Origin: an uncultured Verrucomicrobiae bacterium
GTDB taxonomy: Bacteria; Verrucomicrobiota; Verrucomicrobiia; Palsa-1439
DNA: 64,000 nt
Assembly: GCA_963812605.1 (NCBI GenBank)
Contig: CAWEWF010000001.1
Span: 32,001 to 96,000 of the forward strand
Direction of reading: 5' to 3'
Numbering within the stretch: the stretch's first letter is position 1; each line of letters begins with the position of its first letter. Below are positions 5,077 to 32,137 of this stretch, piece after piece. The notes under the pieces are model-generated. The model did not search any database and was not told the DNA's origin. It saw nothing but the letters and a program-made list of their open reading frames with translations. Both the position numbers and the translations under genes were made by a program.

Positions 5077-5164
5077 GCAACGAGTGTACCGGGCAAGCCG
5101 AATCCCGGTCGCTCGGGGAATGTTCTAAATAGGGACACTGTCACACAAACACGGCCTGAGTCAG

Positions 5165-15454: not shown

Positions 15455-16455
15455 TGCAATTTGGCAATCCAACGTCGTTCTGGCTGCTGCTCCTGGGACC
15501 GGCGTTGGGAGTGCTTTTGATTTGGGGATTTCGTGCGCGGCGCCGGGCGCTCGCGCAGTTTGCCGCCCCGCCACTGGCCGACCGGCTGGCCGATTCCGTT
15601 CGACCGGTCGCGCGCCGCTGGAAAGCCATTTGATTGTCATCGCGGTGTTGTTGGCGGCGCTGGCGCTGACCCAACCGCGGTGGGGGTTCGAATGGCGCGA
15701 AGTGAAACGCAACGGCGTGGACATCGCGGTCTTGCTCGACGTCTCCAAGAGCATGTTGACCGAAGACGTGCGGCCCAACCGGCTGGCGCAGGCGAAATAC
15801 GCCGTGCAGGATCTGCTGGAGAAAGCTCCGGGGCGACCGGATCGGTTTGATCGCCTTTGCGGGGACCGCCTTCGTGCAATGCCCGCTAACCGTGGACTAC
15901 GAAGCGTTCCGCCTGACCTTGAAGGATGCCGATCCACGAATCATCCCGCGCGGGGGCACGGCCATCGGGGTGGCGATTCGTACCGCGCTCAAAAGCTTCG
16001 AATCCGGCGAGGGACGCGACCGGGCGATCGTGCTCATTACGGACGGCGAAGAAACGGAAGGCGACGCGCTGGTGGCGGCGGACGAAGCGGCGAAGGCGGG
16101 CGTGAAGATATACACGATCGGTGTCGGCACGGCGGAAGGTGAGTTGATCCCCATCCGTGAAGAAGGGAAGCCGATGGAATTCCTGAAAGACCACGAGGGC
16201 CAGGTGGTCAAGTCGCGGCTGAACGAGGAGATGCTCAAGCAACTCGCGTTGAAGACGGGTGGCATCTACGTGCGCAGCGTGCCCGGTGACTTCGGCATCG
16301 ACACGATCTACGATAAAGGCATCGCGCAACTACAGCGCAAGGAATTTTCAGCGCAACTGCAGAAGCGTTACTACGAGCGCTTCCAATGGCCCCTGGGGCT
16401 CGCGTTTGCGCTGTTGGTCGTTGAATCCTTTGTCAGCGACAGGAGGACAGCATGA
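15454..16455 (+). CDS. batB: BatB-like VWA domain protein; two compensating frameshifts (~15630, ~15823)
   Basis: QPRWG, LDVSKSMLTEDVRPNRL, GDRIGLIAFAG, CPLTVD, LITDGE, spread over three ORFs. Confidence 0.82.
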
Positions 16456-17243
16456 GATTGTGGTGTCTCCTGTTGCTATTCCCATCCGTGGCGCTGGCGA
16501 AGACCGAAACCTGGCCGCGGTTTTACAATGACGGCGTGACGGCTTATCACAGCAACGATTTCGCACGCGCCGCAACGTTGTTTGAAAGCGCGACCGCCTC
16601 TCCCGATCGCGCCTTGCAGCAACGCGCGCTCTACAATTTGGGGAACACCAGTTACCGCCTCGGCGAAGCCAAAGCGCAGCAGGCGCAGCAGCTCTGGCAA
16701 CGGGCCGTCAAGAGCTATGAGAGCGCGCTTGCCCTCGACCCACACGATACCGACGCCAAATTCAATCACGATTTTGTGCAAAAAAAGCTCGAAGAACTGA
16801 AGAAACAGCAACAACAGCAGCAGCAAAATCAACAAAACCAGCAGGACAAAAAACAGGACCAGAAGAAGGACAAGGACCAACAGAAACAACAGCAGCAACA
16901 ACAAAATTCGCAGAGCCAGCAACAAAAACCCGAGAACCAGGAATCTCAACAACAGAAACAGCAGCAACAACAGCAGTCGCCGGAACAACAGAAACAGGAA
17001 CAGCAAAAGGCTGAGCAGAAACAGAAGGAGGACCAGCAGAAACAGCAGGCGCAGCAGCAACAGAAGGAGTCGCCCCCGGAACAGCAGCCCCAACCGCAGG
17101 GAGGTCAACCCGAGAATGAAGAGAAGCGGGAGGCCGCCGCGTTGCTCGACAATCTGCGCGAGGACGAACGCAATTGGAATTTCTTTCCCGAAGTCCAAAT
17201 GAAGGACTTGAAAGACTCGGGCGAACCGGCCAAGGATTGGTAA
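16452..17243 (+). CDS. batC: BatC-like TPR protein with Gln-rich linker
   Basis: YNLGN TPR, DAKFN, Q/K/E-rich tract, C-terminal KDW. Confidence 0.85.
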   Translation: MRLWCLLLLFPSVALAKTETWPRFYNDGVTAYHSNDFARAATLFESATASPDRALQQRALYNLGNTSYRLGEAKAQQAQQLWQRAVKSYESALALDPHDTDAKFNHDFVQKKLEELKKQQQQQQQNQQNQQDKKQDQKKDKDQQKQQQQQQNSQSQQQKPENQESQQQKQQQQQQSPEQQKQEQQKAEQKQKEDQQKQQAQQQQKESPPEQQPQPQGGQPENEEKREAAALLDNLREDERNWNFFPEVQMKDLKDSGEPAKDW

Positions 17244-17245
17244 CC

Positions 17246-18948
17246 ATGCGATCGTTCCTGATTCTCGGATTTCTGCTGGCTGCGACGCGCGTCTTCGCCG
17301 ATGTGTCCGTCGTTGCGTCCGTGGACAGGAACCGGATCAGCTTCGGCGAATCCGTCACGTTGACCATCGCGGTGCAAGGCGCACAAGACGCTGCGCCGCC
17401 AGCCATTCCGGCGGTGGATGGTTTGTCTTTTGGTGGCGCTTCCTTTCTGAACAGTTTTTCCATGGACAACGGGCAGACAAGTCATTCGCTCAACTTCACG
17501 TATCAAGTCACACCGGGTCGGATCGGCGAATTCACCATACCGGCGATTGCCGTGAATGTCGGGGGCAGGGATTATCTCACTGCGCCGATCAAGCTGGTCG
17601 TGGAGAAGGGGGGTGCGCAAGGCGAACTTGGGCAGGCGCTTTTCGGCCGCGTCAGCCTCTCTTCGCAGCAAGTCTACATCGGACAAACTGCGCCATTGGA
17701 TGTGGTTATTTACGCGCGCGCCGATGTTCCCCTGCGGGGTCTCAATGGGTTCAACTATCAAGCAGATGGTCTGGGCTACAAGTTTGTTCAGAGCATGAAA
17801 CTCAACAGCCAGGTCATCAATGGTGAATCGTTCAACGTCGGAGTAATCCAGGGAGCCATCTCGCCGATGACCACGGGCACGGTAAATTTTGGGCCGTGTG
17901 TCTTGAAGGCGCAACTAGCCGTCCCAAATCGTGGGGCCAACTCGCTTTTTGATGACATGTTCGGCCGCACACAGGTGCGTGAAGTGCCGATCACGATCGA
18001 TGCCGTGCCGTTCACGGTTTTGCCACTACCGGAAGAGGGCCGGCCAGCGGACTTCTCCGGCGCGGTTGGCCAATGGAACCTCGAAGTGACGGCCAAGCCG
18101 GCAGAAGTGGCCGTCGGCGACCCGATCACGTTCACGATTAAAATCAGCGGCAACGGCAACATCGACACCGTCCCAGCGCCGAAGCTCGGCGCGCTGGATG
18201 AATTCAAGACCTATGAGCCGACGACGAAGACAACCAAGGACGACTTGAACACGACGGGTGAACGGGTCATCCAGCAAGTACTCATCGCCCGCAGCCCCGA
18301 GGTGAAACAGCTTCCCGAAGTACGCCTGGCCTATTTCGACCCGGTGGCCAAAGCCTACAAAACCGCGGTCCAGGCACCCATGAAACTTGTCGTGAAAGCC
18401 GGGCAGTGGCGGTCCAAGCACGATTGTCAGCGGCGGCAACCGGTTGCGGCCGGAAGAAAAACTCGGTCAGGACATTGTGTATCTCAAAGGCGATCTCGGC
18501 CCGGTCGCCGCCCGCCACGCCATTTTGCGCCACGCCGACGTTTTGGGCGCTGAACACCATGCCCGTGCTCGCGTTGCTGGGGGGAATCGGTTGGAAGAAG
18601 CGCACGGACAAACTGCGGGGCGACGTCGCCTACGCCCGCCGCGTGCGCGCCGCCCGGGAAGCGCGCAAACTTCTCGCCGCCGCGAAAAACTACGACGAAG
18701 TGCAACATGCGCTGCAGCATTATCTCGGCGACCGCCTGAACATTCCCGCCGCCGGCATCACCACTTCCATCGTGGAAGAAGAGCTTATACCACGCGGCGT
18801 GAACGGCGAACTGGCAGCGGATTTGAAGGCGTGTTTTGAGGCGTGCGATGCCGCACGCTTTGCCGGCGGAAGCGCCGGTACAACCCTGGCGGCCACACGG
18901 GAAAAAATAGAACAAGTGATTGATGAACTTGAGAAGATACATTTATAG
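17246..18948 (+). CDS. batD: BatD family protein; frameshifts near 18400 and 18510
   Basis: VASVDRNRISFGESV, GEFTIPAI, FSGAVGQW, VGDPIT..ISGNGN, YFDP; TM helix and C-terminal domain in ORF 18406..18948. Confidence 0.85.
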
Positions 18949-19686
18949 CGCGATCGTCCTCGTCTGGTTGCTTGGTTTGTCCACGGCATTGGCAGCGCCG
19001 GGCGACGACTTCAAGGCGGCCAACCAGCTTTACGACGCTGGTAAATTCGCCGAGGCAGCGGCGGCTTATGAGAAGATTGAGCCGAAGACGGCGCACGTGT
19101 ACTACAATCTGGGCAATGCCTGGTTCCGCGAGAACAAGCTCGGCCTGGCGCTCCTCAACTACGCGCGGGCGCGACGGCTGGCGCCACGCGACCCGGATAT
19201 TCTCGCAAATCTCAAGTTCGCCCAACAACGGCTCGGCGTGGATGAAATAAATACGCCACCGCGCGCCTTGCAGAGGCTGCTGCGGTCCGTAGTCGATAGC
19301 TTGCACCGCCAGCGAATGGAGCGTCGGCGAAGTGGTCGGGCCTTTGGTTGCTGGCGCTGGCCATTGGCGTGCGCGTTTATTTCCCGAAAATCCGCACGGC
19401 ATTCCTGGTCATCGCAGCGGCCGGTTTAATTGGATTCGGATTCTCGGCTTTTGCGCTGGGCTATCAGGTAATCAACGATCACGCGGCTCCCGAGGCCGTC
19501 ATCGTGGCAGGCGAGACGGAAGCGCGTTTTGCCCCGGTGGCTGATTCGACCGTTCATTTCCGGCTCGCGGAAGGCACCCAGGTGGCTATCCGGGAAGACC
19601 GGGGGCAATGGCTCTTCGTGGAACGCGCGGACGGCCAGCAGGGATGGGTGAAATCGGAAGCTCTTGGACGGATCACGAACTTCTGA
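18923..19686 (+). CDS. batE: BatE-like TPR + SH3 protein; frameshifts near 19300-19340
   Basis: ANQLYDAGKF, YYNLGNA, PRDPDILANL; C-terminal SH3 (FRLAEGTQV...W..V...DGQQGWV). Confidence 0.82.
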
Positions 19687-19693
19687 CAATCTT

Positions 19694-20059
19694 TCAATGA
19701 AAGTTGATCAGCCGCATCCGGTAGAATTGATGCGTGGACGTTGCGAAGTCGCTTACCTCGCCGCTGACGCTCCCGGTCACCATCAACATCGAGGAGTAAT
19801 CCGCCCAGGACACCACATTGGTGCTCCGCTGAATCGTAAAGGTGGTAACGTTCGTGCCGGTGGGGTCGATCACGGCGAAATCGACGCCGATGCTATTGTC
19901 TGCCGGCCGGTAGACAACTCCCGTGATGCCCGCTCGCACCCCTGCGGCATTGGTAATTGTTAGATCTGACCACGCCGACCCGGCACTCACCAGAAAGGCG
20001 AGGGCCACGATGAGTTGACTGACTGCGGCGTGCCCGATCCTCCTTCGGGCCGTTCCCAT
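19694..20059 (-). CDS. Small secreted protein consisting of a verrucomicrobial C-terminal-type domain
   Basis: Signal peptide (SAWS|D); 'FTIQRSTNVVSW...HQFYRMRL'. Confidence 0.65.
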   Translation of the reverse strand: MGTARRRIGHAAVSQLIVALAFLVSAGSAWSDLTITNAAGVRAGITGVVYRPADNSIGVDFAVIDPTGTNVTTFTIQRSTNVVSWADYSSMLMVTGSVSGEVSDFATSTHQFYRMRLINFH

Positions 20060-20196
20060 ACAGTAAGTTCGTCCACGGTGCGGACTCTGTCAATCGGCTC
20101 GCGAAGAACGGTCGCCGCTTGACGCGCGGATGAATTCCGACGATAAATAAGTGGAGCGGGATTGTTGTAGCGATTTTGATAATGGAGGAATTGGCC

Positions 20197-21468
20197 ATGA
20201 TGAATTTGGAAGCTCAGGTACATGAATTTGTTCGGGAAGGATTTGCTCACAAATCCGGCAAAGCCGCGGTGACGGCGAAGGATGATCCCGAATGGCGCAA
20301 AGTGCGCGACGTGGGAACGCGTTTGTGGCTCGACACAGGCGACATGGATGAGGCGGCCAAGTTGTGGAATTCATCGTTCGACGCGCTGACGACCAACAAC
20401 ACGCTGCTGAACAAGGAAATCCAAAAGGGGATCTACGACGACCTTGTCGCCAAGGCCGCCCGCGTCGTCCTTGAAGCCGCGCCAAAAATCAGCGAGCCGG
20501 ACCTTATCCTGGAGATCGCGTTCATCCTGAACGCCCACCACGCGCTGCGGCTCGTCGACCGATTCGGCGCGTTCGTCAGCGTTGAGTTGCATACCGATCT
20601 TTCCAATGACGTCGAGCGCACGGTCGCCTACGGCAAGCGCTACTTCGCGATTTGCCCCGAAAGATTCTATGTGAAAGTGCCGCTCACGCCCGCGGGCTAT
20701 CTCAGCGCGCGCAAACTCGCGCAAACGGGTATCCCGCTCAACTTCACGCTGGGCTTCTCCGCGCGGCACAATTATGTCGCCGCCTTGCTCACCAAGCCCG
20801 ATTACGTCAATGTGTTCCTCGGGCGGCTGAACTCGGTTGTGGCCGACAACAAACTGGGGGACGGTCGTAATGTCGGCGAGAAGGCGACGTTGGCCACCCA
20901 GCGCGAATTGCTCACCCTCCGCAAGGCAGGCCGCACCAAAACGAAACTCATCGCCGCCAGTATCCGCTCGGGCGCCCAAATCGGCGATCTCGCCGGGGTG
21001 GACATCTTCACCATGCCAACTAAGGCCGCCACCGAGTACCGCGCCAACCCGCGTCCAGAAGTCGTCTCCCAGGTGAACAAGGACCCCGAGGTGCCGCTTA
21101 CCAACGGTGTGACCCTCGCACAATTTGGCGGGGAGACACTTTGGAACGTGCCGCCGCCATTCCAGGCTGCTGTCGAAGATCTGCTCCACAAAAACCTCGA
21201 CACGCTTACGCCCGACGACCTGCAAGCGCATTTCGAGAAGGCTGGCCTGGGCGGTTTCCTGCCGCGTTGGACCGCCGCCGACATCCAGACCGCAACGAAG
21301 GACGGGAAGATTCCTGTCTACGCGACCTGGAAGGACCGTCTGGCATCCGGCAAAGTCGGATTGGATGCCTTGATGAATCTCAGCGCGCTCTACTCCTTCG
21401 CGACCGACCAAAAGGCGCTCGATGATCGTATCCGTTCGCTGCTAAAGAAGGCGAACATTCAGGCATAG
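20197..21468 (+). CDS. Transaldolase family protein (long variant)
   Basis: LWLDTG, TTNNTL, FYVKVP (Schiff-base Lys), NFTLGFS, VFLGRL, LIAASIR; RBS GGAGGA upstream. Confidence 0.88.
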   Translation: MMNLEAQVHEFVREGFAHKSGKAAVTAKDDPEWRKVRDVGTRLWLDTGDMDEAAKLWNSSFDALTTNNTLLNKEIQKGIYDDLVAKAARVVLEAAPKISEPDLILEIAFILNAHHALRLVDRFGAFVSVELHTDLSNDVERTVAYGKRYFAICPERFYVKVPLTPAGYLSARKLAQTGIPLNFTLGFSARHNYVAALLTKPDYVNVFLGRLNSVVADNKLGDGRNVGEKATLATQRELLTLRKAGRTKTKLIAASIRSGAQIGDLAGVDIFTMPTKAATEYRANPRPEVVSQVNKDPEVPLTNGVTLAQFGGETLWNVPPPFQAAVEDLLHKNLDTLTPDDLQAHFEKAGLGGFLPRWTAADIQTATKDGKIPVYATWKDRLASGKVGLDALMNLSALYSFATDQKALDDRIRSLLKKANIQA

Positions 21469-21530
21469 ACCTAAACGCTGGCACGAATTCTCGCACAGCA
21501 ACTCGTTCCCAAACCGCCTCCACTGGCGGA

Positions 21531-21627
21531 AAACGAACCCATTTGTCATTTTTGTGCAATGTACCTTAACTATTTAGTACCCTGACCTTTCCAATGGCAT
21601 TTTAACAAAAACGATTTGGGTTCGTTT
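21531..21627. repeat. 11-bp inverted repeat AAACGAACCCA...TGGGTTCGTTT around a 75-bp AT-rich spacer
   Basis: Arms at 21531-21541 and 21617-21627 are perfect reverse complements. Confidence 0.75.
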
Positions 21628-21864
21628 CGCAGAAAGCAGTGTTTTTTGCACCCTCTCCCTCGTCAAAACTCACCGCCCGAACTCAGTTGTCAAAGAACCG
21701 CAACCATTCTAGCTGCAACCCCTCCGCTCGTCCAGCCAAATATCAATTTACGATATTATCTCCTGTGTAAGAAAGCCTTGCTTTCGGGAAACCAGCGGTA
21801 TAGAAGCCTCTCAGGCGAGGATTCTGATTTGGTCTGTGGCTCAAAGCGGTGAAAGGCGGCGAGC

Positions 21865-24800
21865 ATGAATATGACCGGCGAGCGCATCCGACTTCGGCTG
21901 ACACTTCTTTCAGTTATCTGTTTTTTGGCACCCGTGAGAGCGAGCCTTGCGCAGGATGTGACCATCACCAATTTGACGCAGTTGGCTGAAGTGGCCTTCA
22001 GCGCGAATCATAGCCTGTATTTGCCGTGGACGCCGTGGCAGTGGCGGGCGTACCCTACGGACAATGGCGAGCCGTGGTGGGTGGATTGCTCGCAAGTGGC
22101 CTGCACCGACTTGCTGTCCACACCCACCAATTCCTGCGCGACGCTCCAGATGCACGGGGTAACGGTTACGTCCGTGGTTTTGACCAAGAACATTCTGACG
22201 GGCGAAACGTTGGTACAGTCCGGATGCTCGACGGATGTGATCGCGAGCATTGCCGCGCCGAGCGGCTACCAGCCCGGCGCGCAATTGGGCTACAACGCCT
22301 GGGTCTGGCGGGAATGGCAGCAGGTGACTAACTGCCTCGATTGCTGGGGGCTAACAGCCGACGAAATTCCGTCGCCCATCGTCACGCTCAAGACACGGCT
22401 GGCTGATGCCAGCACCTACTCCATCTACCAGAGCAACGTAGAGGCTGACGCCGAAGCCGCAGCAGCGGCCTGGGCGTCATCTGCGTCAAGTTTCACAACA
22501 AGCGGTGGCTTCACGGCGATGGCAGGCGGGATGATGATGGGGATGGACGACGATGTTTCCTGCCTTATCACGGATGAAACTTTGCCCTTTTCGGCCACGC
22601 AGATCGACCAAGATAGCTCGGGCAACACTTTCCTGACCTGGACCTCATGCAGCGACCACATCTATGGGGTATTTTCGTCAGCCGATTTGAGTAACTGGGT
22701 CGGGGTGACTGCGATGTGGGGCGCCGACCTCTCAACGACATGGGAAGATACGAATACGGCGAACGGTGTTACCAGCCAATTCTATAAAGTCGTCCGAATT
22801 CCGCCCGACGAGGGCTACAATAGCGACGCCATCCCCAGCGGCTGGGCGGTGGACAACGGGCTGAATCCGCTCGATCCGAACCTGGATAACGAAGACCCCA
22901 CTGGCGACGGATACAGCATTCTGGCGGACTATCTAAACGGGACCAACCCGAATGTGTCGAACACACCGCCGGTGTCCAGCATCAACAACGGCAACCTGTA
23001 CACCACGGTACTGACCATCCCCATCCAGCCGACGAATACGAATTATCCGAACATTCTGGTGAGCCTCGATCCCACGATGAGCAACGCGACGGTTCTGGCC
23101 AATACGGGCGCACCCATTAACTATACGTTGCCCGACAACGGTGATGGTGGGTATGAGTTGTTCTTACAGTATGCGGATGCGCAGGGCCAGCCGCACGGCC
23201 CGATTCTGAGCGAGGTTGTCATTGTGGATCGGACGCCGCCAGTGACGTACATCACGTCTCCGGCCAGCAACGCCGTGCTGGATCAGGCGTTTATCACGTT
23301 GCAAGCTGTGGCCTATGATCCGAACCCGGTGTTGCCGGATGCCACGCGTCCGCTGAAAATCTGGATCAATGGGCAGCCATTCTGGGACCGAGACGGAACC
23401 AATATCGTGATCGAGCGGTTTCCAGTCCCCGCGGGAACCAACTCTTTCACCGTCACGATTCAAGTCACCGATCAAGCCGGGAATAGCAATCAAACCATGC
23501 AGACATGGACCGTCGATCCCAGCGGCGACACCACGGCCCCGCAATTATCCTCATTCAACATCGCGACCAACATGCTGCTGCCAAACGTCAGCACGGTTTG
23601 GGTCGAAGGGGCGGTCGACGATAGCAACGCGCTGGTCAACGCGATCGTGAGTTCGGACAGTGGTGATGTCACGACCAACGCGCTGCATATCCGTGGCTTA
23701 CAGTTTGAGGGCTCGGTACCGCTGGAATTCGGTACGAACCAGCTCATGTTGCTGGCCTTCGACGCGGCGGGCAACACATCCTCGAACACCTTCATGATTA
23801 TCACCTCGGATCGCTACCGCTTCGAGATTACCTCGCCGGCATTTGGGCAGTTCGCCACCGCGCCCTCGAACACGGTCAGCGGCTATGTGAGCGCTCTCTT
23901 TGACGAGGGCCTGCCGACGCAAACGAACGTCACCAGCGTGTTCATCAACGGCGTCGCGGCGGTGCTATGCACGAATACTGACGCCAACGGCAATCGATCG
24001 TTCACCACGACCAACGCCATACCGCTGGGCGTACCCATCACAGGATTTCTGGCCGGTCCGGGCATCCCGACCGATCCGCCACCGGACCCGCCAGCCCAGT
24101 CTCAGGTGTACGAAGTCACCGAGAAAGTAGAGGTCAACGACGCGATTTATTCGCCTACGATACCGTGGGACTCCTCATTGTTGAGTCCCTCACCACCGGC
24201 TTACTCGATGGGTTCGCTCTACAGTCCTGACATTGATCAAGCTTTCTTTAATTGGGGTCCTATTTATAGAGCTGACATTGGTGTTTTTGACTATAGTTGT
24301 TGGGTCGACATTGAAGCATTACACCAGATAACGACCGTAACACAGGAATTCGATGCAGTGACGAGTCAGGTGCAATCAAATTGGACAGAGGAGCTTGACG
24401 CTCCTCCCTACGACTACTACCCCCCTCTTCCTGGAACCTCCATCTGTACCGACCCGGTAGGTCCGGATAACATCGCGTGGGTAATAAGTTCTCCAGACGA
24501 CGAAGTATCGACGGTATCTGGCCCGATCGGGCGCGGATTGTCTATCGGAACCTATGAATATGCTCACGGCGAAGCCGTGAGTGACAACGAGATTTACTGT
24601 GGGGGCCCGTACCCCTCGTTCACGGATGTCGCTTTGTGGCGTAACCGGGATACCAGCAGCATCCATTTCCGCGCGCCACGAGAATATGACACGAACACCA
24701 CGGTGATCTTCACCTTCGAGGGAGTGGATTATCGAAGGCGGGACGGTGTTCCTCGGGACTTGAGCCAGATCACGTTTCGCGGGCAGAGTCCCATTGCCTA

Positions 24801-25701
24801 CAGCAACGAGGCGCAGACGGTCAGCTACCTGATAACCGTGGATGGTGGCAGGGAATACACGATTTGTGAGGACGACTTCACGTGGCCTGCCGATCAGCAG
24901 GTACACGATTACACCTACTATTATTCAACCACCTGCTTCGATGGATCGCCGTTCCATGATCAGCTGGTTGGCACCTGGACCGAAGACATGCACTGGCTCA
25001 CCTGGACGAATTTTCACAATCACACAGTGGATTTGATCGTCCAAGAGGTCGGGCAGGCTGGATATACACCAAATCTCAAAAACGCAGCGGGACAGCTGAA
25101 GGTCAATTATCGCCAGCCGCTGCAAAACGCACGACTGTTGGATATGCGACAAACCTGCCAAAACGCCGGTTCATTCAGCGTGTACGTTTATCAGGGACAC
25201 GCGGGAATCATTAGTAACCAGCCGGGCATCGCTGCGTATACAGGGTTGAACTGCATATTTCCATCCAATTGTCCTGCAGGGACGCCAACTTATGACGTAG
25301 GGCTCTTCACATACAAGGCTGATGTGTATTTCTTGACCAGTGTTATCATGCCCAACATAGTGGGCGATTTCACGGCAGGTCAGGGCATGTCGCGTCTTGT
25401 GGTAATTATGGGCTGCGAATCAGGTACGAGTTGGCCGCCCGGTTTCACACAGGCGGGCGCCAAAGTGTTAATCTATTCTGGAGGTGAAGTTGATGCTGCG
25501 ACAGCGAGCGGCGCCATCAACGCATTCTTCAACACCCTCGCGAGTGGCCAAACCATCGCCGACGCGCTTGGTGCGGCAAACCAGATAATCGATAACTATA
25601 ATTCACATCCGGGCGCAACAGGGCAAATGAACGAAATGACAGCCGTTTACGGAAGTGGTGTTTCTGGAGCGAACACTTTTGTAGACATTATGAAACCGTA
25701 G
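21865..25701 (+). CDS. Large secreted multidomain protein: TSP3-like repeat, Ig-like domains, C-terminal caspase/CHAT-like (clan CD) peptidase domain
   Basis: Signal peptide; 'GLNPLDP..EDPTGDGYS..DYLNGTNP'; 'DRTPPVTYITSP' and 'DTTAPQ' Ig boundaries; 'YVYQGHAG' and 'LVVIMGCESG...FTQAGAK...FFNTLASGQTIADAL'. Confidence 0.8.
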   Translation: MNMTGERIRLRLTLLSVICFLAPVRASLAQDVTITNLTQLAEVAFSANHSLYLPWTPWQWRAYPTDNGEPWWVDCSQVACTDLLSTPTNSCATLQMHGVTVTSVVLTKNILTGETLVQSGCSTDVIASIAAPSGYQPGAQLGYNAWVWREWQQVTNCLDCWGLTADEIPSPIVTLKTRLADASTYSIYQSNVEADAEAAAAAWASSASSFTTSGGFTAMAGGMMMGMDDDVSCLITDETLPFSATQIDQDSSGNTFLTWTSCSDHIYGVFSSADLSNWVGVTAMWGADLSTTWEDTNTANGVTSQFYKVVRIPPDEGYNSDAIPSGWAVDNGLNPLDPNLDNEDPTGDGYSILADYLNGTNPNVSNTPPVSSINNGNLYTTVLTIPIQPTNTNYPNILVSLDPTMSNATVLANTGAPINYTLPDNGDGGYELFLQYADAQGQPHGPILSEVVIVDRTPPVTYITSPASNAVLDQAFITLQAVAYDPNPVLPDATRPLKIWINGQPFWDRDGTNIVIERFPVPAGTNSFTVTIQVTDQAGNSNQTMQTWTVDPSGDTTAPQLSSFNIATNMLLPNVSTVWVEGAVDDSNALVNAIVSSDSGDVTTNALHIRGLQFEGSVPLEFGTNQLMLLAFDAAGNTSSNTFMIITSDRYRFEITSPAFGQFATAPSNTVSGYVSALFDEGLPTQTNVTSVFINGVAAVLCTNTDANGNRSFTTTNAIPLGVPITGFLAGPGIPTDPPPDPPAQSQVYEVTEKVEVNDAIYSPTIPWDSSLLSPSPPAYSMGSLYSPDIDQAFFNWGPIYRADIGVFDYSCWVDIEALHQITTVTQEFDAVTSQVQSNWTEELDAPPYDYYPPLPGTSICTDPVGPDNIAWVISSPDDEVSTVSGPIGRGLSIGTYEYAHGEAVSDNEIYCGGPYPSFTDVALWRNRDTSSIHFRAPREYDTNTTVIFTFEGVDYRRRDGVPRDLSQITFRGQSPIAYSNEAQTVSYLITVDGGREYTICEDDFTWPADQQVHDYTYYYSTTCFDGSPFHDQLVGTWTEDMHWLTWTNFHNHTVDLIVQEVGQAGYTPNLKNAAGQLKVNYRQPLQNARLLDMRQTCQNAGSFSVYVYQGHAGIISNQPGIAAYTGLNCIFPSNCPAGTPTYDVGLFTYKADVYFLTSVIMPNIVGDFTAGQGMSRLVVIMGCESGTSWPPGFTQAGAKVLIYSGGEVDAATASGAINAFFNTLASGQTIADALGAANQIIDNYNSHPGATGQMNEMTAVYGSGVSGANTFVDIMKP

Positions 25702-25710
25702 GAGATCAAC

Positions 25711-26256
25711 ATGAAATCGAAGCGGAGGACAAGGGTTGCGTATGGACTCATTCTTCTCATGTGCGGACTCTTCCTTTTTTTCTTTTATACTCCGGTTGGA
25801 CTTTTATCGCAGGCATCTCTAGCGCTCAAAATACAACCTCTTTACCTCCGATTTCTTTCTGCGCGGGTGGCCGCCACCGGCGGGGTGTATTGCAAAGACG
25901 GTGTTGCCCGGCAGCTGTACATGTCGGGAATGAATAATCTATGGGCCGCTCACGAGGCTGTGAGCGCAGCAATTGCTCAGCGGCCATATCCAATGGGTTT
26001 CCGCCGTCGGGCTTATATCGAAATGGGCACCGGCTCCTACAGCAACGCAGTTGCGGATTTTGAACAGGCCTTGAGCCTGTGGCAGCATGAGCAATACGAT
26101 TTCGACTTTAATCCAACAGGGACGTCCAACAGCCTTGAAATAGCGCAGGCGTGTGCTGCAGCGAAAAATAAGTATTGGTTGGATCGGAATAATAGGCCGG
26201 AGAATCCGTCCACGCCACCCGATTTCGAGCCGAAGCAAACGCAGCCAAGCCCATGA
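25711..26256 (+). CDS. Membrane-anchored TPR-like protein
   Basis: N-terminal TM helix; 'AAIAQRP..MGFRRRAYIEMGTGSYSNAVADFEQALSL' TPR; RBS GGAG 9 bp after the upstream stop. Confidence 0.65.
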   Translation: MKSKRRTRVAYGLILLMCGLFLFFFYTPVGLLSQASLALKIQPLYLRFLSARVAATGGVYCKDGVARQLYMSGMNNLWAAHEAVSAAIAQRPYPMGFRRRAYIEMGTGSYSNAVADFEQALSLWQHEQYDFDFNPTGTSNSLEIAQACAAAKNKYWLDRNNRPENPSTPPDFEPKQTQPSP

Positions 26257-26283
26257 TAGGATAGTAGCCCGTCAATCCCGAGG

Positions 26284-26889
26284 ATGAACATGACGGATAA
26301 GCGAACGAAACAGATCCTGACCGGCGCGCTCATTCTGAATTCGCTCTTGCTCGGCTTGATGCTTTTCTTCTTGTTTGCGGCGGTAAGCTGCATCTCGACT
26401 GTTTTGGATCAGGAGTCGAGTTACAAAGCGTTTCCTTCCATTACAGAGTGGGCAGTCAATTTCCGTCCCAAGAATTTAATTTCAACGTTGTCGCTGATTA
26501 TCGTTGTCGTAGCGACGTCTTTGTTTGTGGGCCTGTCGTTGAAGAGGAGCGTACAAGACATCTCTGGCATCTTCCTATATTTCACTATTCATTCATCCCT
26601 GTGGTTACTAGCGGGCGCCTATTTTCTTTTCTTTGTCATGGCGGTAGCATTCTCTTACATTCATGTTGGCGGCGGGTTATATACGGCGTCCAACGCCCCG
26701 CCGCCGCCACCATCGATGATCGCTACGCCGTCTGTTGATTCACGCATCTGGCTTGCGGCAGCTCTGGCCTATTCAGTCGGATTGTTCATACGTGCAATCA
26801 CAGTCTCGCGGAGACGCAAGGAAGCTGAGTGGAAAGTGAGACCAATAAGGGGTCAGGTCTCGGAAAGGGAGTCAGGGCTTGACACCTGA
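26284..26889 (+). CDS. Hypothetical multi-pass membrane protein (~4 TM)
   Basis: Four hydrophobic segments; lower GC than flanks. Confidence 0.6.
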   Translation: MNMTDKRTKQILTGALILNSLLLGLMLFFLFAAVSCISTVLDQESSYKAFPSITEWAVNFRPKNLISTLSLIIVVVATSLFVGLSLKRSVQDISGIFLYFTIHSSLWLLAGAYFLFFVMAVAFSYIHVGGGLYTASNAPPPPPSMIATPSVDSRIWLAAALAYSVGLFIRAITVSRRRKEAEWKVRPIRGQVSERESGLDT

Positions 26890-27107
26890 TAGGCTCCCTC
26901 CTCGAAGAAATCAAGTAATCGGGGTCAACTCAGCACACTGGACAATTGACGCAAGAAGGCCCACGGCGGTGGGTGTCTATTTCTCTTATTACTTCACGGA
27001 TTTCGACCTGCCCTTGCCCCAATTTGGTGGACACCTGTGGTGTATAAGTGTGTCCCGAAAGAACACACCATGAACCCCAAAGTGATCAGCGCGGAAGGTG
27101 ATCTCAG

Positions 27108-27290
27108 CTAGGGAGCGGACTGCGATTTTGGCGCGACGGAGGCGGGAGAATTTGTCTGGTTGTTCGTCGCTGCGGGATAACTGGAAGGCCCCAGGACAGA
27201 GCGCTTGCTGCTGTAGGAACTCGCTGGCGACGCCGTTCCACACCCGGTCATCAACAATCCCAGGAGCGCCATCAGTCCAAATGAGCCCAT
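27108..27290 (-). CDS. Putative small lipoprotein
   Basis: MGSFGLMALLGLLMTGC (lipobox-like) followed by an S/P/N-rich tail; start uncertain. Confidence 0.35.
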   Translation of the reverse strand: MGSFGLMALLGLLMTGCGTASPASSYSSKRSVLGPSSYPAATNNQTNSPASVAPKSQSAP

Positions 27291-27452
27291 CCGCTTGCTG
27301 GTCTTTTCACAATTCAACACAAGCCATTTCCTACCACCATTTGGAGGACTCAACAAGCCGGGACTGCGCAACCGCCTTTTGGGTTTGACTCAGCGGCGCG
27401 ATTCGATACCCTGCTCAGACCTCATTCGTGTTGATTCTTTGGTTTGAAAATT

Positions 27453-28651
27453 ATGGCGAAACTTTCCATTAGCGACTTGAAAGACTTCCGCAACCAGCGC
27501 GTACTGGTGCGGGTGGATTATAACGTGCCGCTTGATGAAGCTGGGGGGATTACGGACGATAAACGCATCAAGGCGACCATGCCGACGCTCGATTATCTGG
27601 TGAAAGGGGGCGCCAAGGTGATCCTGTGCTCGCATCTTGGCCGTCCGAAAGGCAAGCGCGACCCCAAGCAGAGTCTCCGGCCCGTGGCGCAGCGCCTGGC
27701 GGAAATCCTTGGGCGACCGGTGGCCTTCGTGGATGATTGCATCGGCGAGAAGGTGGACAAAACGATCAGTATCATGCAGCCGGGCGATGTGGTTTTACTG
27801 GAGAACCTCCGTTTCTACGCCGAAGAAGAAGAAAACGATCCGTCGTTCGCGGAGAAGCTGGCGAAGAATGCCGATCTGTATGTGAATGATGCCTTTGGGT
27901 CGGCGCATCGCGCCCATGCTTCGACGGAAGGCGTGGCGCAAATCATCAAGAAACGCGGGGGTAACTGCGTGGCGGGTTTCCTCATGGAGAAGGAATTGAA
28001 ATATCTCGGAGGGGCACTTAGTTCCCCCAAGAGACCGTTCATTTGCATTCTCGGGGGTGCCAAGGTTTCGGACAAGATCGCCGTCATCGAGAATTGCTTA
28101 CACAAGCGGATGCGATTCTTATCGGCGGGGCAATGGCTTACACGTTCTTAAAGACGCAAGGATTTGGGGTGGGGAATTCCCTCGTGGAAAACGACAAACT
28201 TGAAATGGCGAAGTCGTTGCTCGACAAGGCGAAGGGTAAAAGTTTCTTCTGCCAAGTGATCACCTGCAAGCGACCAAACCCGCCGCAGGCGCAACGACCC
28301 GCATTACGGACGGGCCGAGCATTGAAGACGGTTGGTGCGGCGTGGACATCGGACCCGACACCATCGCGCGCTACAATAAAGAAATCGCCTCGGCGAAGAC
28401 CATCGTCTGGAATGGGCCGATGGGCATTTTTGAAATCCCCGAGTATTCGAAGGGCACGTTCGAGGTCGCCAAAGCCGTAGCTGGAAACAAGGATGCGATT
28501 TCGATTATCGGCGGCGGGGACAGCGCGAAGGCCGCGAAGAAGGCGGGCGTGGACAAGGAAGTCACGTTCGTTACGCACCGGCGGCGGGGCGTCGCTCGAG
28601 TTTTTGGAAGGAAAAGAATTGCCCGGCGTGGCCGCGCTGAGCGACAAGTAA
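27453..28651 (+). CDS. pgk: Phosphoglycerate kinase; three apparent frameshifts (~28097, ~28240, ~28574)
   Basis: [72 protein letters not shown]; stop 28649-28651. Confidence 0.93.
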
Positions 28652-28671
28652 CGACCGACCCGACAAAGCCA

Positions 28672-29442
28672 ATGAATTCAAATCGCAAACCGATTATCGC
28701 GGGCAACTGGAAGATGTATAAAACGGCGGCGGAAGCACTCGCTTTGGTCAACGGACTTAAAAGCGAGCTTGTCGGCGTGAGGGACACGGACGTGGACACC
28801 GTTGTCTGCCCGCCGTTCACGGCGCTTTACGCGGTGAGTACCCTGTTGCAGGATTCGAACATCCAACTTGGCGCGCAAAACGTCCACTGGGAGAAGGAAG
28901 GCGCATTCACGGGTGAAATTGCCGCGCCAATGCTCAAGGAGTTGGCTGTGCGCTATGCTGTCGTTGGCCATAGCGAACGGCGGCAGTATTTCGGCGAAAC
29001 GAACGAAGGGGTCAACAAGCGCGCCAAAGCTGCACTGGCCAACGGGATCCGCCCGATTGTTTGCGTGGGCGAAATGCTCGCGCATCGCGAAGCCGGACAC
29101 ACGGAAGCGGTTGTGCGCGAACAGGTAACAGGGGGGCTTGCGGGTTTCACCAAAGATGCTATGCTCAATGTCGTCATTGCCTATGAACCTGTCTGGGCAA
29201 TTGGCACAGGAAAAACAGCCACCCCTGCACAGGCGCAGGAAGTGCACGCGTTCATCCGCGAACTGCTCGCGGCGATGTTTGATTCGTCGGTGGCCGCCAA
29301 GGTGCGGATTCAGTACGGCGGCAGCGTGAAAGCGGCCAACGCAAAGGAATTGCTGGGTCAGGCCGATATCGATGGCGCGCTGGTTGGCGGTGCAAGCCTC
29401 GAAGCAAAAGGATTCGCGGATATCGTCAAGGCTGCGTTATAG
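28672..29442 (+). CDS. tpiA: Triosephosphate isomerase
   Basis: [42 protein letters not shown]. Confidence 0.97.
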
Positions 29443-29499
29443 TGTCTGGAGTTGGCGCAGGCGCGGATTGAAACTGCCCTGCAAACGAAAGAAAAATTC

Positions 29500-29952
29500 A
29501 TGAATTATTTGATTGGATTTGTAACGGTGGTGCATGTGCTGGTGGCACTCTTTGTGATCGTGCTGGTACTGATGCAGAAGTCATCGGAGCAGGGCGTCGG
29601 CGCCGCGTTCGGCGGTGGCGTAACCGAAACTGTCTTCGGTGCCGGCACGACTACCGCGCTCGTGCGGATGACGATCTATTGTGCCTGCGCGCTTTTGGCG
29701 ACAACATTAATCCTGGCCGTCTTGCATTCACACCGCGGAAAAGGGAACAGCTCATTACTGCAGCGTTCCCTGGCAACGATGCCGGCGACACCTGCGCCAC
29801 AATCAACATTTCCGCTCACACCGCCGCCGTCCACACCCGGCTCGCCCGCAGCGGTTCCTACGACACCAGCAACCTCGACGCAAGTTCCGGCGGCGCAGCC
29901 ACAGTCATCCCCCACCGCTTCAGAACCGGCGGCGACGCCAAAGACCCCGTAA
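29500..29952 (+). CDS. secG: Preprotein translocase subunit SecG with Pro/Thr-rich tail
   Basis: LVLMQ..GVGAAFGGG..TVFG, two TM helices, located after tpiA. Confidence 0.9.
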   Translation: MNYLIGFVTVVHVLVALFVIVLVLMQKSSEQGVGAAFGGGVTETVFGAGTTTALVRMTIYCACALLATTLILAVLHSHRGKGNSSLLQRSLATMPATPAPQSTFPLTPPPSTPGSPAAVPTTPATSTQVPAAQPQSSPTASEPAATPKTP

Positions 29953-29972
29953 CCTTCGCGCCGCAAATCGGC

Positions 29973-30000
29973 TTGACTGTCATGCGTTTGGCAGTAACGT
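29973..30000 (+). promoter_or_regulatory. Putative sigma70 promoter, probably leaderless transcript for the M3 peptidase-opp operon
   Basis: TTGACT(29973)-16 bp-TAACGT(29995), 7 nt before ATG 30008; no SD. Confidence 0.45.
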
Positions 30001-30007
30001 GGGCCGC

Positions 30008-32134
30008 ATGTTTTCGAGAACCGTCCCGGTCTTGCTACTGCCAGTTCTTCTGGCTGCCTGCTCCAGCATGAATCACCAGTCGACCACCAAAATGGATTCG
30101 CTCCAGGACTTCCAAAAGCGCGCCGCCAAGTTTCACAGCGTCGTCACCGTCCCGTCGTTCGAGACCACGACGAACGAAGTCCAGATGTCGGTGAAGCAAG
30201 CCATCGAGTCCGGCAATGCGGCCCTGGATCGTATCGGCCAGCTTGCTCCCGGCGAAGTTACGTTCACCAATACGGTGCGCGCGCTGGATGATCTCGAATT
30301 TCAACTCGGCCTTGTGGACAATCGCCTCTCGCTCATCAAGGAAACCAGCACGGACGCTGCGGTTCGCGACGCTGCGACCGACTCCCTGAAGGAGCTTCAA
30401 GAATGGGTGGTCAGCTTTGATTACCGCGAGGACGTTTATCGCGCCGTTAAAGCCTATGCCGACACCCAACCCAAATTGGAAGGGGAGGACGCCAAGCTTC
30501 TGTCCGAAACCATGCGTGATTATCGACGGGCGGGGCTGGAATTGCCGAAAGCCGACCGTGACGAAGTCGAGCGCATGCGCAAGGAGCTTTCGCGATTGAT
30601 GACTGATTTCGAGACGAATATCACGAAAGCGGAGAAGGCGCTCAAGTTCACGAAGGCGGACCTTGACGGCGTCCCGGAAGACTTCCTGAAGCAAATCAAA
30701 ACCAACGAAGACGAATACGTCGTGATGGCGAACATCACCTGGCATTACATCACGGTAATGGACAACGCCACGCGTGAGGACACGCGCAAGCGGCTCTATA
30801 TCGAGCAGAGCAACCTGGCGAAGGAACAGAACGTGCCATTGTTGGAAAAGATTCTCGTTTTGCGCGATAACATCGCGCGCAAGCTCGGCTACAAAACGTG
30901 GGCGGATTACCAGACCGAAGTCAAAATGGTCAAGAATGCCGCCACGGCCATCAAGTTTCTGGAAGACCTGAAAACCGGCTTGCAGCCCAAGTTCCATGGC
31001 GAACTGGAAGAGTATCGCCAGCTTAAGGTCAGGGAGACCGGTGATACCAATGCGACGATCAACGTCTGGGATTGGCGGCACTACAGCAACCAGTTGAAGA
31101 TCGAGAAGTACAACGTGGATGCCGAACAATTGCGCGTCTACTTTCCCTATCAACACGTACTCGAAGGGCTGTTCCGCATCTACCAGAGCATCTTCAGCCT
31201 GAAGTTCGAACGCGTCGAGCCGCCGTACAAGTGGATCGGTGATTTGCAGATGTACACCGTGACCGATGCGCGGACCGGCGAGCCGCTCGGTCTCTTCTAC
31301 CTTGACATGTTCCCGCGCGAGGGCAAATACAATCACTTCGCTGAATTCGGCATCATCGATGGCAAATTGTTGCCGGACGGAACCTATCAGCGACCCACCG
31401 CGGCGCTGATTTGCAATTTCCCGGCGCCGACAGCGGACCACCCCTCGCTGATGTCGCACGACGACGTGGTGACGATCTTCCACGAATTCGGCCATGCGAT
31501 GCACTCGATCCTGACTCGCGCAAAATACGCGCGTTTCTCCGGCACCAGTGTGCCGCGCGATTTTGTCGAAGCCCCATCGCAAATGCTGGAGAACTGGCCC
31601 TGGGACAAGAAGGTGCTGGACAGTTTCGCGGCGGACTACCGTGATCCGTCAAAAAAGATTTCGCCGGCGATTCTGGCAAGCCTCAAGGAAGCCAGGCTCG
31701 CCACCGAAGGCACGCGTTACGAGCGCCAACTCTCCTTCGCGATGCTGGACCTCGCGTTGCATACGCAAATCCATGAGGATAACGCACAAGACACCGTCAA
31801 ACTGTCCAATCGCGTGCTCAGCGACGTATTTCTCCCAGTCCCCGATGACACGGCGTTCGTGGCTTATTTCGGGCACTTGATGGGTTATGACGCCGGCTAT
31901 TACGGCTACGCGTGGGCGGACGCGATCGCGGCTGACATGGACACGGTATTCGAGAAAGCGCCCGAGGGCCACTTCGACAAGCAGGCCGGTATGAGACTGC
32001 GCAAGGAAATCTACGAGGTCGGTGATTCCCGTGATGTGAACATCTCCATCGAAAAATTCCTGGGCCGTCCGCGTTCGTTGGAACCGTTCCTGAAAAAACT
32101 CGGGATTGATGGTGATTCCACCAAGAACCAATGA
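30008..32134 (+). CDS. M3 family metallopeptidase (thimet oligopeptidase-like), lipoprotein
   Basis: Lipobox LAAC; FYLDMFPREGKY, FHEFGHAMH (HExxH), RDFVEAPSQMLE, GYDAGYYGYAW. Confidence 0.93.
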   Translation: MFSRTVPVLLLPVLLAACSSMNHQSTTKMDSLQDFQKRAAKFHSVVTVPSFETTTNEVQMSVKQAIESGNAALDRIGQLAPGEVTFTNTVRALDDLEFQLGLVDNRLSLIKETSTDAAVRDAATDSLKELQEWVVSFDYREDVYRAVKAYADTQPKLEGEDAKLLSETMRDYRRAGLELPKADRDEVERMRKELSRLMTDFETNITKAEKALKFTKADLDGVPEDFLKQIKTNEDEYVVMANITWHYITVMDNATREDTRKRLYIEQSNLAKEQNVPLLEKILVLRDNIARKLGYKTWADYQTEVKMVKNAATAIKFLEDLKTGLQPKFHGELEEYRQLKVRETGDTNATINVWDWRHYSNQLKIEKYNVDAEQLRVYFPYQHVLEGLFRIYQSIFSLKFERVEPPYKWIGDLQMYTVTDARTGEPLGLFYLDMFPREGKYNHFAEFGIIDGKLLPDGTYQRPTAALICNFPAPTADHPSLMSHDDVVTIFHEFGHAMHSILTRAKYARFSGTSVPRDFVEAPSQMLENWPWDKKVLDSFAADYRDPSKKISPAILASLKEARLATEGTRYERQLSFAMLDLALHTQIHEDNAQDTVKLSNRVLSDVFLPVPDDTAFVAYFGHLMGYDAGYYGYAWADAIAADMDTVFEKAPEGHFDKQAGMRLRKEIYEVGDSRDVNISIEKFLGRPRSLEPFLKKLGIDGDSTKNQ

Positions 32135-32137
32135 CCG

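Follow-up and report, generated by a model that had tools for sequence, protein, structure and literature searches.

A candidate polymorphic toxin-immunity locus with a caspase/CHAT-fold tip in an uncultured Verrucomicrobiae bacterium

What is the role of a very large exported protein that ends in a protease-like domain, is closely followed by the gene of a small membrane-anchored protein, and lies between a transaldolase gene (tal) and a phosphoglycerate kinase gene (pgk)? This question is raised by the locus of protein P0001 in the genome of an uncultured Verrucomicrobiae bacterium, which we analyzed within a window of 64,000 nucleotides (positions 32,001 to 96,000 of contig CAWEWF010000001.1, assembly GCA_963812605.1; coordinates refer to this window unless another locus is named). 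An earlier note, made from the DNA letters alone, had proposed a conserved carrier with a swappable C-terminal tip, accompanied by cognate immunity or regulator genes. Our analysis indicates that the locus is probably a polymorphic toxin-immunity system in which a presumably toxic tip of the Tox-Caspase type is borne on a verrucomicrobial carrier. The features on which the argument turns are as follows.

21865-25701, + strand: P0001, 1278 aa in a single open frame; predicted exported polymorphic toxin composed of carrier and tip
25021-25701, + strand: C-terminal tip of P0001, by predicted fold a clan CD (caspase/CHAT-fold) Cys peptidase domain, with His1112 at nt 25198-25200 and Cys1184 at nt 25414-25416
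25711-26256, + strand: P0002, 181 aa, with an N-terminal membrane anchor and a TPR-like domain; predicted cognate immunity or inhibitor protein

Fold and catalytic residues of the tip

The first question is whether the tip is a peptidase domain at all. The earlier note had recognized a clan CD pattern in the last ~220 residues of P0001, and the motifs that it quoted can be placed exactly: YVYQGHAG begins at residue 1107 and contains His1112, LVVIMGCESG begins at residue 1178 and contains Cys1184, and FTQAGAKVLI, AFFNTLASG and AVYG lie at residues 1194, 1220 and 1260, respectively. The AlphaFold2 model of the tip, calculated from an alignment of 21 homologues, reached a predicted local distance difference test score (pLDDT) of 88.6 and a predicted template modeling score (pTM) of 0.86. 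When this model was compared with the PDB using Foldseek, the search that the earlier note had suggested, 31 matches were obtained at E ≤ 1e-3, and those at the top all belong to clan CD, namely the SAVED-CHAT structure 8tl0 (E 1.2e-5), MALT1, the CHAT domain of DdvA and caspases 1, 4, 7 and 9. Alignment with VIA-align gave a Z of 17.1 for 8tl0_A over 183 aligned residues with a root-mean-square deviation of 3.0, and Z values of 13.5-14.7 for caspases 3, 6, 7 and 8. The two putative catalytic residues are positioned at strand ends in the model, with His1112 (model residue 78) following the strand 72-77 and Cys1184 (model residue 150) following the strand 144-148, and both are conserved in the family alignment (A1): the His occupies 11 of 13 occupied cells, the two exceptions being short fragments, and the Cys is present in 17 of 17. 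The pattern read from the letters thus corresponds to a caspase-hemoglobinase fold with a conserved His1112 and Cys1184, and the model strongly indicates a clan CD peptidase by fold.

That the resemblance is a matter of chance, or that the gene was produced by errors in a low-quality assembly, is a reading to which we attach virtually no credence. Apparent frameshifts do occur nearby, in pgk, and in a paralogue on contig 14 of the same genome, but the 1278 open codons, the 52 homologues described below, the confidently predicted fold, the VIA matches and the conserved catalytic residues refute it.

Among proteases of known structure, the tip most resembles CHAT proteases, the best structural matches being the SAVED-CHAT protein 8tl0 mentioned above and the DdvA anti-sigma factor 8rw5 (Z 13.7, E 2.3e-4). 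Judged by their PDB titles, these are a nucleotide-activated defence filament and a transmembrane regulator, respectively, whereas the P0001 tip is an exchangeable end without a sensor domain. The tip family is also rare: in an exhaustive HMMER search with residues 1035-1278, 24 proteins matched at E ≤ 1e-3 among 1.84 billion representatives, and in all 24 the domain is located at the C-terminal end.

Caspase-like C-terminal toxin domains have been named 'Tox-Caspase', with RHS repeats and Imm36/Imm57 given as their associates (Zhang, de Souza, Anantharaman, Iyer, Aravind 2012, PMC3482391), and this was the sole paper with that name in the literature that we searched, where no later paper on caspase-like C-terminal toxins was found. 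As far as the sections of that survey on which we draw describe them, these domains share with the tip of P0001 a caspase-like fold, an H and C dyad, the C-terminal-most position in an exported protein of several domains, a neighboring immunity gene (here a predicted one), and an association with RHS repeats and with export of the Sec or type II secretion system (T2SS) type. Two differences are evident from the same sections: Verrucomicrobia are not listed there for Tox-Caspase, and the partners named are Imm36/Imm57, whereas the partner here is the membrane-anchored TPR protein P0002. With its 24 matches, the tip family is likened to Tox-Caspase by description and fold, not by sequence profile.

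The carrier, its junction and its exchangeable tips

If the tip is cargo, it should be separable from the protein that bears it, which a comparison of homologues can reveal. A search with the whole of P0001 returned 52 homologues, and in pairwise BLAST those that extend to about residue 1050 stop aligning at P0001 residue 1050-1060, with unrelated tails beyond. The break coincides with the motif WTNFHN, of which F148, H149 and N150 (columns of alignment A4) are invariant in 16 of 16 rows, representing the window and 15 genome loci. The strict junction motif is found in 22 of 53 proteins, and the tails of these 22 fall into 10 clusters. The conserved carrier with a swappable tip that had been postulated is therefore borne out by 52 homologues, a fixed junction and at least 10 unrelated tip families, and the search among relatives for the same N-terminus followed by different C-termini and different downstream genes revealed both. 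The tip of the window is common only to P0004 (69% tail identity) and the truncated P0009 among the 52 carrier homologues; other tips include, by eye, one protein with HExxH, another with GxSxG, and Cys-rich beta domains, and the single Pfam-named tail among 20 scanned carrier homologues is NAGPA in P0028. The carrier part of P0001 can be divided as follows.

21865-21951, + strand: Sec-type signal peptide, residues 1-29 (MNMTGERIRLRLTLLSVICFLAPVRASLA, then QD), read by eye from the translation
21952-22794, + strand: N-terminal module, about residues 30-310, also present in other large verrucomicrobial proteins
22822-24114, + strand: TSP3-type repeat (about residues 320-366) and immunoglobulin (Ig)-like stalk (about 370-750) with a Pro-rich linker at its end
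24115-24636, + strand: poorly conserved middle region, about residues 751-924, where the GC content at third codon positions (GC3) starts falling
24637-25020, + strand: conserved pre-toxin beta domain, about residues 925-1052, with the junction motif at its end
25003-25020, + strand: junction motif WTNFHN, residues 1047-1052, end of the pre-toxin domain

The architecture of signal peptide, Met-rich linker, TSP3 repeat and Ig stalk that the earlier note had described is only partly evident in P0001 itself. The signal peptide and the Met-rich stretch (GGMMMGMDDD around residues 221-230) can be seen by eye, as can the Pro-rich linker PPPDPPAQ at residue 738, but the TSP3 and Ig parts stay below threshold, with Pfam matches of the stalk at 26.3 bits for Big_13 and 24.5 bits for Glucodextran_B (cutoff 27 for each) and a weak match of NCBIfam Amuc_1099 at residues 322-366; TSP3_bac does exceed its cut-off in homologues of P0001, for example in P0004 with 50.4 bits. 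Residues 1-362 align on their own, again in pairwise BLAST, to proteins with RCC1, PKD or GloVer parts. Neither Pfam nor NCBIfam provided a name for the N-terminal module, and the Atlas returned unnamed Verrucomicrobiota clusters scoring below 0.9. Alignment is lost between about residues 760 and 920 in many homologues; the following region, about 925-1055, is conserved in most long homologues and contains 27 invariant columns in the 16 rows of A4. The model of this pre-toxin domain (residues 903-1060, 15 homologues) is all-beta with a pLDDT of 79, and its best, weak VIA structural matches (Z 4.8) are sugar-binding beta sandwiches. A HINT/intein-like cleavage domain preceding the His-Asn of the junction was considered and is not supported, as there is no HINT structure among the matches and no Pfam match. 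Cleavage at the WTNFHN junction is at this point purely conjectural.

Of the 45 genomes that represent the taxonomic family, 23 contain a carrier match at E ≤ 1e-20, and the genome of the window holds two further carrier relatives with other C-terminal parts, on contig 14 near 468-470 kb and on contig 1 near 250 kb. The paralogue on contig 14 (G000, 468229-470315; L054 6652-10316, minus strand) is split into two overlapping open reading frames (ORFs) of 207 and 1017 aa. It is 85% identical to P0001 over residues 1-172 and 42-45% identical over the remainder, a pattern that suggests a recent exchange of N-termini between paralogues together with a frameshift or assembly error.

The organization is reminiscent of CdiA-CT/CdiI, in which likewise a long carrier is conserved, the junction is marked by a short invariant motif (VENN in CdiA, WTNFHN in P0001), the tips are unrelated, the cognate immunity gene comes directly after and orphan tip modules lie further downstream. 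Here, orphan or displaced fragments of the carrier, or of the pre-toxin domain plus tip, follow the partner gene in L050 (6603-7580), L047 (7721-8479), L041 (1-2596) and L053 (1854-2087). The module name PT-VENN appears in the sections of Zhang et al. 2012 (PMC3482391) used here. P0001 differs from CdiA in being built from a Sec signal peptide and a TSP3/Ig-like stalk: neither a two-partner secretion (TPS) domain nor filamentous hemagglutinin (FHA) repeats were found in P0001 by Pfam and NCBIfam at E ≤ 0.1, and no CdiB-type partner was found in the Pfam scan. As a separate observation, the same conserved DNA is found after toxin loci in different genomes (L039 1-3400, L046 1090-4300 and L051 8200-10300); in L046 it contains a 518-aa ORF that by eye resembles a large serine recombinase, as well as a tRNA gene at 1091-1164, and a mobile element seems to adjoin these three loci.

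The same tip is also found on carriers of other kinds. In three proteins, P0059, P0068 and P0069, it starts a few residues after an Rhs-associated core, right behind the DPxGL-type core end; the TIGR03696 Rhs_assc_core model scores above its cut-off at residues 334-412 of P0059 (tip from 417), 48-105 of P0068 and 11-55 of P0069. P0059 additionally has an RHS repeat, and P0068 is annotated in one source as 'RHS repeat-associated protein'. The C-terminal position behind the Rhs core is one that holds toxins, so that by analogy the tip of the window may serve as toxin cargo elsewhere. P0001 shares this tip with the Rhs-borne proteins but, unlike Rhs toxins, has neither RHS repeats nor the core (Pfam, NCBIfam), its pre-toxin module being a small beta domain. 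A third type of carrier is P0085 of Prosthecobacter fluviatilis, a protein of 548 aa with a different N-terminus and the same tip at its end.

The acidic N-terminal region of P0085 is common to a neighboring paralogue, and a second polymorphic family can be discerned on that contig (NZ_JBHSMQ010000012.1; L098 5836-9000, L099), where the acidic N-terminal ~280 residues of neighboring genes are 59% identical and their C-termini differ. A further copy of the acidic N-terminal start lies after the gene of a Sel1-repeat protein, and upstream in the L098/L099 region (5020-5631, minus strand) a secreted protein consisting of Cys-rich CPVC(Y/F)SNPCVC repeats is encoded.

The variety of tips also invites another reading, in which P0001 would be a modular secreted or surface enzyme whose heads (protease, glycosidase, lipase-like, lectin-like) serve feeding or adhesion, the anchored repeat proteins acting as periplasmic inhibitors or chaperones whose sole task is to keep the producer safe during export. 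Several tip families do look Ig- or lectin-type beta by eye, one is a NAGPA phosphodiester glycosidase and none has a match among Pfam toxin families; the TSP3/Ig parts of the carrier are adhesin-like, a delivery apparatus is not seen, and three loci are without a downstream partner. Against this stand the occurrence of the same tip directly after an Rhs core, an established toxin position, and the combination of a sharp invariant junction, unrelated tips, orphan modules and tip-specific partners, which is the pattern of polymorphic toxins as set out in the sections of Zhang et al. 2012 (PMC3482391) available for comparison. We therefore judge a feeding or adhesion enzyme to be unlikely and favor a polymorphic toxin.

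The downstream partner and its predicted binding to the active site

A polymorphic toxin would be expected beside an immunity gene, and P0002 is the obvious candidate. As the earlier note had observed, a gene for a transmembrane TPR protein begins (at 25711) 9 bp after the P0001 stop codon; both this spacing and the single N-terminal hydrophobic segment were verified, and the TPR character became clear from the family profile. P0002 taken alone is below the cut-off for TPR (Pfam TPR_2, E 0.049), while its family profile (A3) matches the consensus TPR structure 7obi (E 1.8e-5) and the TPRs of CHIP and TOM70 (about 1e-3), and the homologue in L041 passes Pfam TPR_8 with 29.9 bits (cutoff 25.7). 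When P0002 was scanned against Pfam at E ≤ 0.1, weak TPR matches were the only ones, with neither Imm36 nor Imm57, families for which Pfam has models. The basic N-terminus KSKRRTR precedes the hydrophobic segment, and by the positive-inside rule the remainder of P0002 is placed in the periplasm.

Linkage between tip and partner was assessed by comparing gene neighborhoods in 20 related genome loci. A P0002 homologue lies directly after the tip gene in four of four carrier loci with this tip (the window, L039, L040 and L041), at identities to P0002 of 50% in L039, 50% in L040 and 23.5% in L041 (E 2.6e-5). In L041 the tip is only 36% identical and sits on a distant carrier, and the P0002 homologue is still adjacent. 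Over six pairs, the identities of tips and partners drop together, a trend that is not a statistical test because the genomes are kin. In Prosthecobacter, the gene overlapping the toxin stop codon encodes an N-terminal anchor and five Sel1 repeats (Pfam E 2.2e-45), so that a TPR or Sel1 partner accompanies the tip in five of five loci with context. Partners of other kinds accompany other tips: L042 and L046 share both the tip family and the partner family, another partner family is common to L048, L056 and L050, and for the Cys-rich tip family a partner is found in two of five loci (plus L050). An anchored ankyrin protein lies downstream in L052 and an anchored HEAT protein in L055; ankyrin and HEAT repeat proteins are both listed as immunity classes in the sections of Zhang et al. 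2012 (PMC3482391) that we cite. The N-terminal anchors or signal peptides of the immunity-like proteins imply a site of action in the periplasm rather than in the cytoplasm as for CdiA-CT/CdiI.

How P0002 might engage the tip was modeled, as the earlier note had suggested, from residues 17-244 of the query piece (P0001 residues 1035-1278) and residues 38-165 of P0002, each with its alignment. The complex scores were 0.78, 0.63 and 0.70, giving a median of 0.70 compared with 0.00 for the best of three controls; of 157 solved complexes, 116 attain the mark used for this score, as do 2 among 215 mismatched pairs, figures that apply only roughly here, the alignments being our own. Agreement between the runs extends to at least 58% of contacts, and the pLDDT of the partner is at least 68. 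On the side of the tip, the modeled interface comprises residues 78-84 and 150-151 (query-piece numbering) and thus covers His1112 and Cys1184; on the side of P0002 it comprises residues 127-137 (EQYDFDFNPTG), with Phe131 closest to the His. The same loop touches both the His and the Cys in the model. The model supports binding of P0002 over the active site, and P0002 is probably the cognate immunity protein that blocks the protease.

The partner could also be read differently, with the tip as a CHAT-type processing or regulatory protease that cleaves the carrier or an envelope substrate of the producer and with P0002 recruiting the substrate or regulating in trans. TPR repeats are fused to many CHAT proteins, where they are thought to recruit the substrate or to regulate. 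The best structural match of the tip is a CHAT protease, the Prosthecobacter homologue is entered in UniRef as a CHAT domain protein, and the TPR/Sel1 partner is constant across the loci with context. Most caspase-like domains in polymorphic toxins, moreover, are releasing peptidases according to the sections of Zhang et al. 2012 (PMC3482391) consulted, although the C-terminal versions are assigned toxin roles there. The tip cannot be the general processing enzyme of the family because it is the C-terminal-most domain and its slot holds unrelated non-protease domains in sister proteins, and the modeled position of P0002 on the catalytic site is more readily explained by an inhibitor or a pseudo-substrate than by an adaptor, although it would also be compatible with a substrate. 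A processing protease is thus in our view rather improbable, and we return to the toxin with its immunity protein.

In the mechanism that we propose for this toxin, P0001 would leave the cytoplasm through Sec by means of its N-terminal signal peptide, arranged as N-terminal module, TSP3/Ig-like stalk, beta pre-toxin domain ending in WTNFHN and exchangeable tip, and the tip, as a His1112/Cys1184 peptidase, would act as the toxic cargo. P0002 would be held in the inner membrane by its anchor, the TPR-like domain facing the periplasm, where it would bind the peptidase across the active site via the conserved loop 127-137 and so shield the producer both during the periplasmic transit of the toxin and upon its delivery by siblings. 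Tip and immunity gene would travel together as a cassette, the whole block having been inserted between tal and pgk. Such an arrangement would resemble periplasm-acting type VI secretion system (T6SS) effector-immunity pairs, whose immunity proteins are exported or anchored facing the periplasm; no T6SS marker was found in P0001 in Pfam and NCBIfam scans.

Several results weigh against a toxin-immunity system. The Pfam CHAT model (PF12770) remains below its cut-off for the tip (17.7 bits versus 24, E 0.0025, residues 1177-1240 only), so that the clan CD call rests on fold, and the tip-family profile had no match at E ≤ 0.1 among solved structures, the sole match being one chain at E 0.35. The pre-toxin domain is without a convincing PDB match (best Foldseek E 0.053, best Z 4.8 in the wide VIA search, and 0 matches for the profile against the PDB), and no delivery machinery was identified for P0001. 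Among the 20 carrier homologues scanned, no other tip has a match in a Pfam toxin family, and the label 'toxin' for the whole carrier family accordingly rests on architecture; a metagenome scan with P0068 gave 8 loci matching the Rhs core, none with the tip. As for the partner, the genomes of the four carrier loci with this tip are related to one another, and these loci cannot be counted as independent; the complex score is a model confidence, not a measurement. The Prosthecobacter Sel1 protein is not detected by the hidden Markov model (HMM) of the P0002 family and is hence treated as an analogue within one structural class, without demonstrated homology. Linkage of tips and partners is also not universal, as three of the five Cys-rich-tip loci (L043, L044 and L057) have no same-strand ORF of at least 75 aa within 400 nt downstream.

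A more far-reaching version of the proposal, which we offer tentatively and consider doubtful, would make the WTNFHN carrier a Verrucomicrobia-specific delivery platform whose beta domain, with a fold not known so far, releases or translocates tips into the periplasm of neighbors, most of the at least 10 tip families being envelope-acting toxins not yet recognized as such and the tip of the window a periplasmic, antibacterial caspase-fold toxin for which the acidic-aromatic DFDF loop of P0002, inserted into the active site, serves as pseudo-substrate. The polymorphic toxins of Proteobacteria, Bacteroidota and Firmicutes have been charted well, but those of Verrucomicrobia, to our knowledge, hardly. 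The carrier and its WTNFHN junction appear to be new, as they were not found in the literature searched; the rare caspase/CHAT-fold tip family comes with what may be a new, membrane-anchored TPR type of immunity family, predicted to lie over the active site. The clean junction motif marks where tips start and permits a simple harvest of new toxin and immunity domains, most of them without a Pfam match. The prediction can be tested in culture, since Prosthecobacter fluviatilis, a cultivated relative, has this tip together with a Sel1 partner, and the modeled active-site plug suggests how a helical-repeat protein could inhibit a clan CD peptidase.

The insertion between tal and pgk and the neighboring genes

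How did the locus come to lie between its two neighbors? The remaining features that this question requires are listed here.

21469-27443, no strand: inserted block containing three genes with two spacers; flanked by tal (20176-21468) and pgk (from 27444)
26284-26889, + strand: P0003, 201 aa, with four hydrophobic segments

The upstream neighbor is a transaldolase gene (Pfam TAL_FSA, E 6.9e-36), and genes for phosphoglycerate kinase and triose-phosphate isomerase follow downstream (Pfam). The insertion between tal and pgk that the earlier note had deduced is confirmed by relatives, as 8 of the 17 other congeneric genomes have the two genes as neighbors, separated by roughly 100-380 nt. A wider gap of 1.06-2.9 kb with other content is present in 7 of the 17, filled in five of these seven by an opposite-strand ORF of ~420 codons; of the remaining two congeners, one is without tal within 10.5 kb and the other has a contig end. 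The gap in the window measures 5975 nt, and its resemblance to the gaps of relatives is limited to the last ~320 nt. Neither tal nor pgk flanks the toxin locus in any of the 20 related toxin loci. No RNA gene was found by Rfam at the borders of the insertion (window 15000-33000). Independently of the block, the tal-pgk spacer is a variable spot in the genus (L081, L082, L084, L085, L087, L088 and L089), and other spacer ORFs in G030, G035 and G037 include those for a ~350-aa signal-peptide protein, a 449-aa protein and a 229-aa membrane protein.

The composition of P0001 changes along the gene. The GC counts made by hand in the earlier note are exact (41/60 at 22261-22320, 21/60 at 24241-24300), and the shift within the gene that they were taken to mark is real, but it sets in near residue 750 and not at the tip junction near residue 1052. 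GC3 is 0.754 in tal, 0.739 in P0001 residues 1-750, 0.603 in residues 751-1050, 0.546 in the tip, 0.549 in P0002 and 0.599 in P0003. Because the compositional break lies near residue 750, these values suggest that the exchanged segment included the variable middle region and the pre-toxin domain.

The third gene of the row had been described as encoding a protein with four transmembrane segments, and P0003 indeed has four hydrophobic segments. Of the two downstream genes that had been proposed as cognate immunity or regulator genes, P0002 retains this role on the basis of its presence in four of four loci and the complex model, but P0003 does not: no homologue was detected in the 20 related loci, including none of the three other tip-bearing carrier loci. 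A single homologue (32% identity) occurs in the 44 other genomes of the family, between ORFs that by eye are aminotransferase-like and glycosyltransferase-like, and four metagenome homologues of 56-67% identity lie on short contigs. P0003 was consequently rejected as a second immunity gene or conserved partner, being unlinked to the tip elsewhere and having its homologue in a glycosylation context. It is part of the inserted block, possibly as a hitch-hiking or orphan gene.

Further out, the locus has ordinary neighbors, a gene for a BatD-family protein at 17174-18553 upstream of tal (Pfam BatD, E 1.1e-28) and one for an M3 peptidase at 29999-32134. The pgk gene itself is seemingly broken, its PGK matches being divided among three ORFs that overlap and lie in different frames (27444-28151, 28043-28480 and 28342-29442), and assembly indel errors are a likely cause. 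The pgk frame here measures 238 aa, compared with 255-443 aa in 17 congeners, 15 of which have at least 400 aa. The last pgk piece runs in frame into triose-phosphate isomerase, forming a PGK-TIM fusion frame; one continuous PGK-TIM match is likewise found in the relatives L073 and L075, and in other relatives the two genes lie in different frames.

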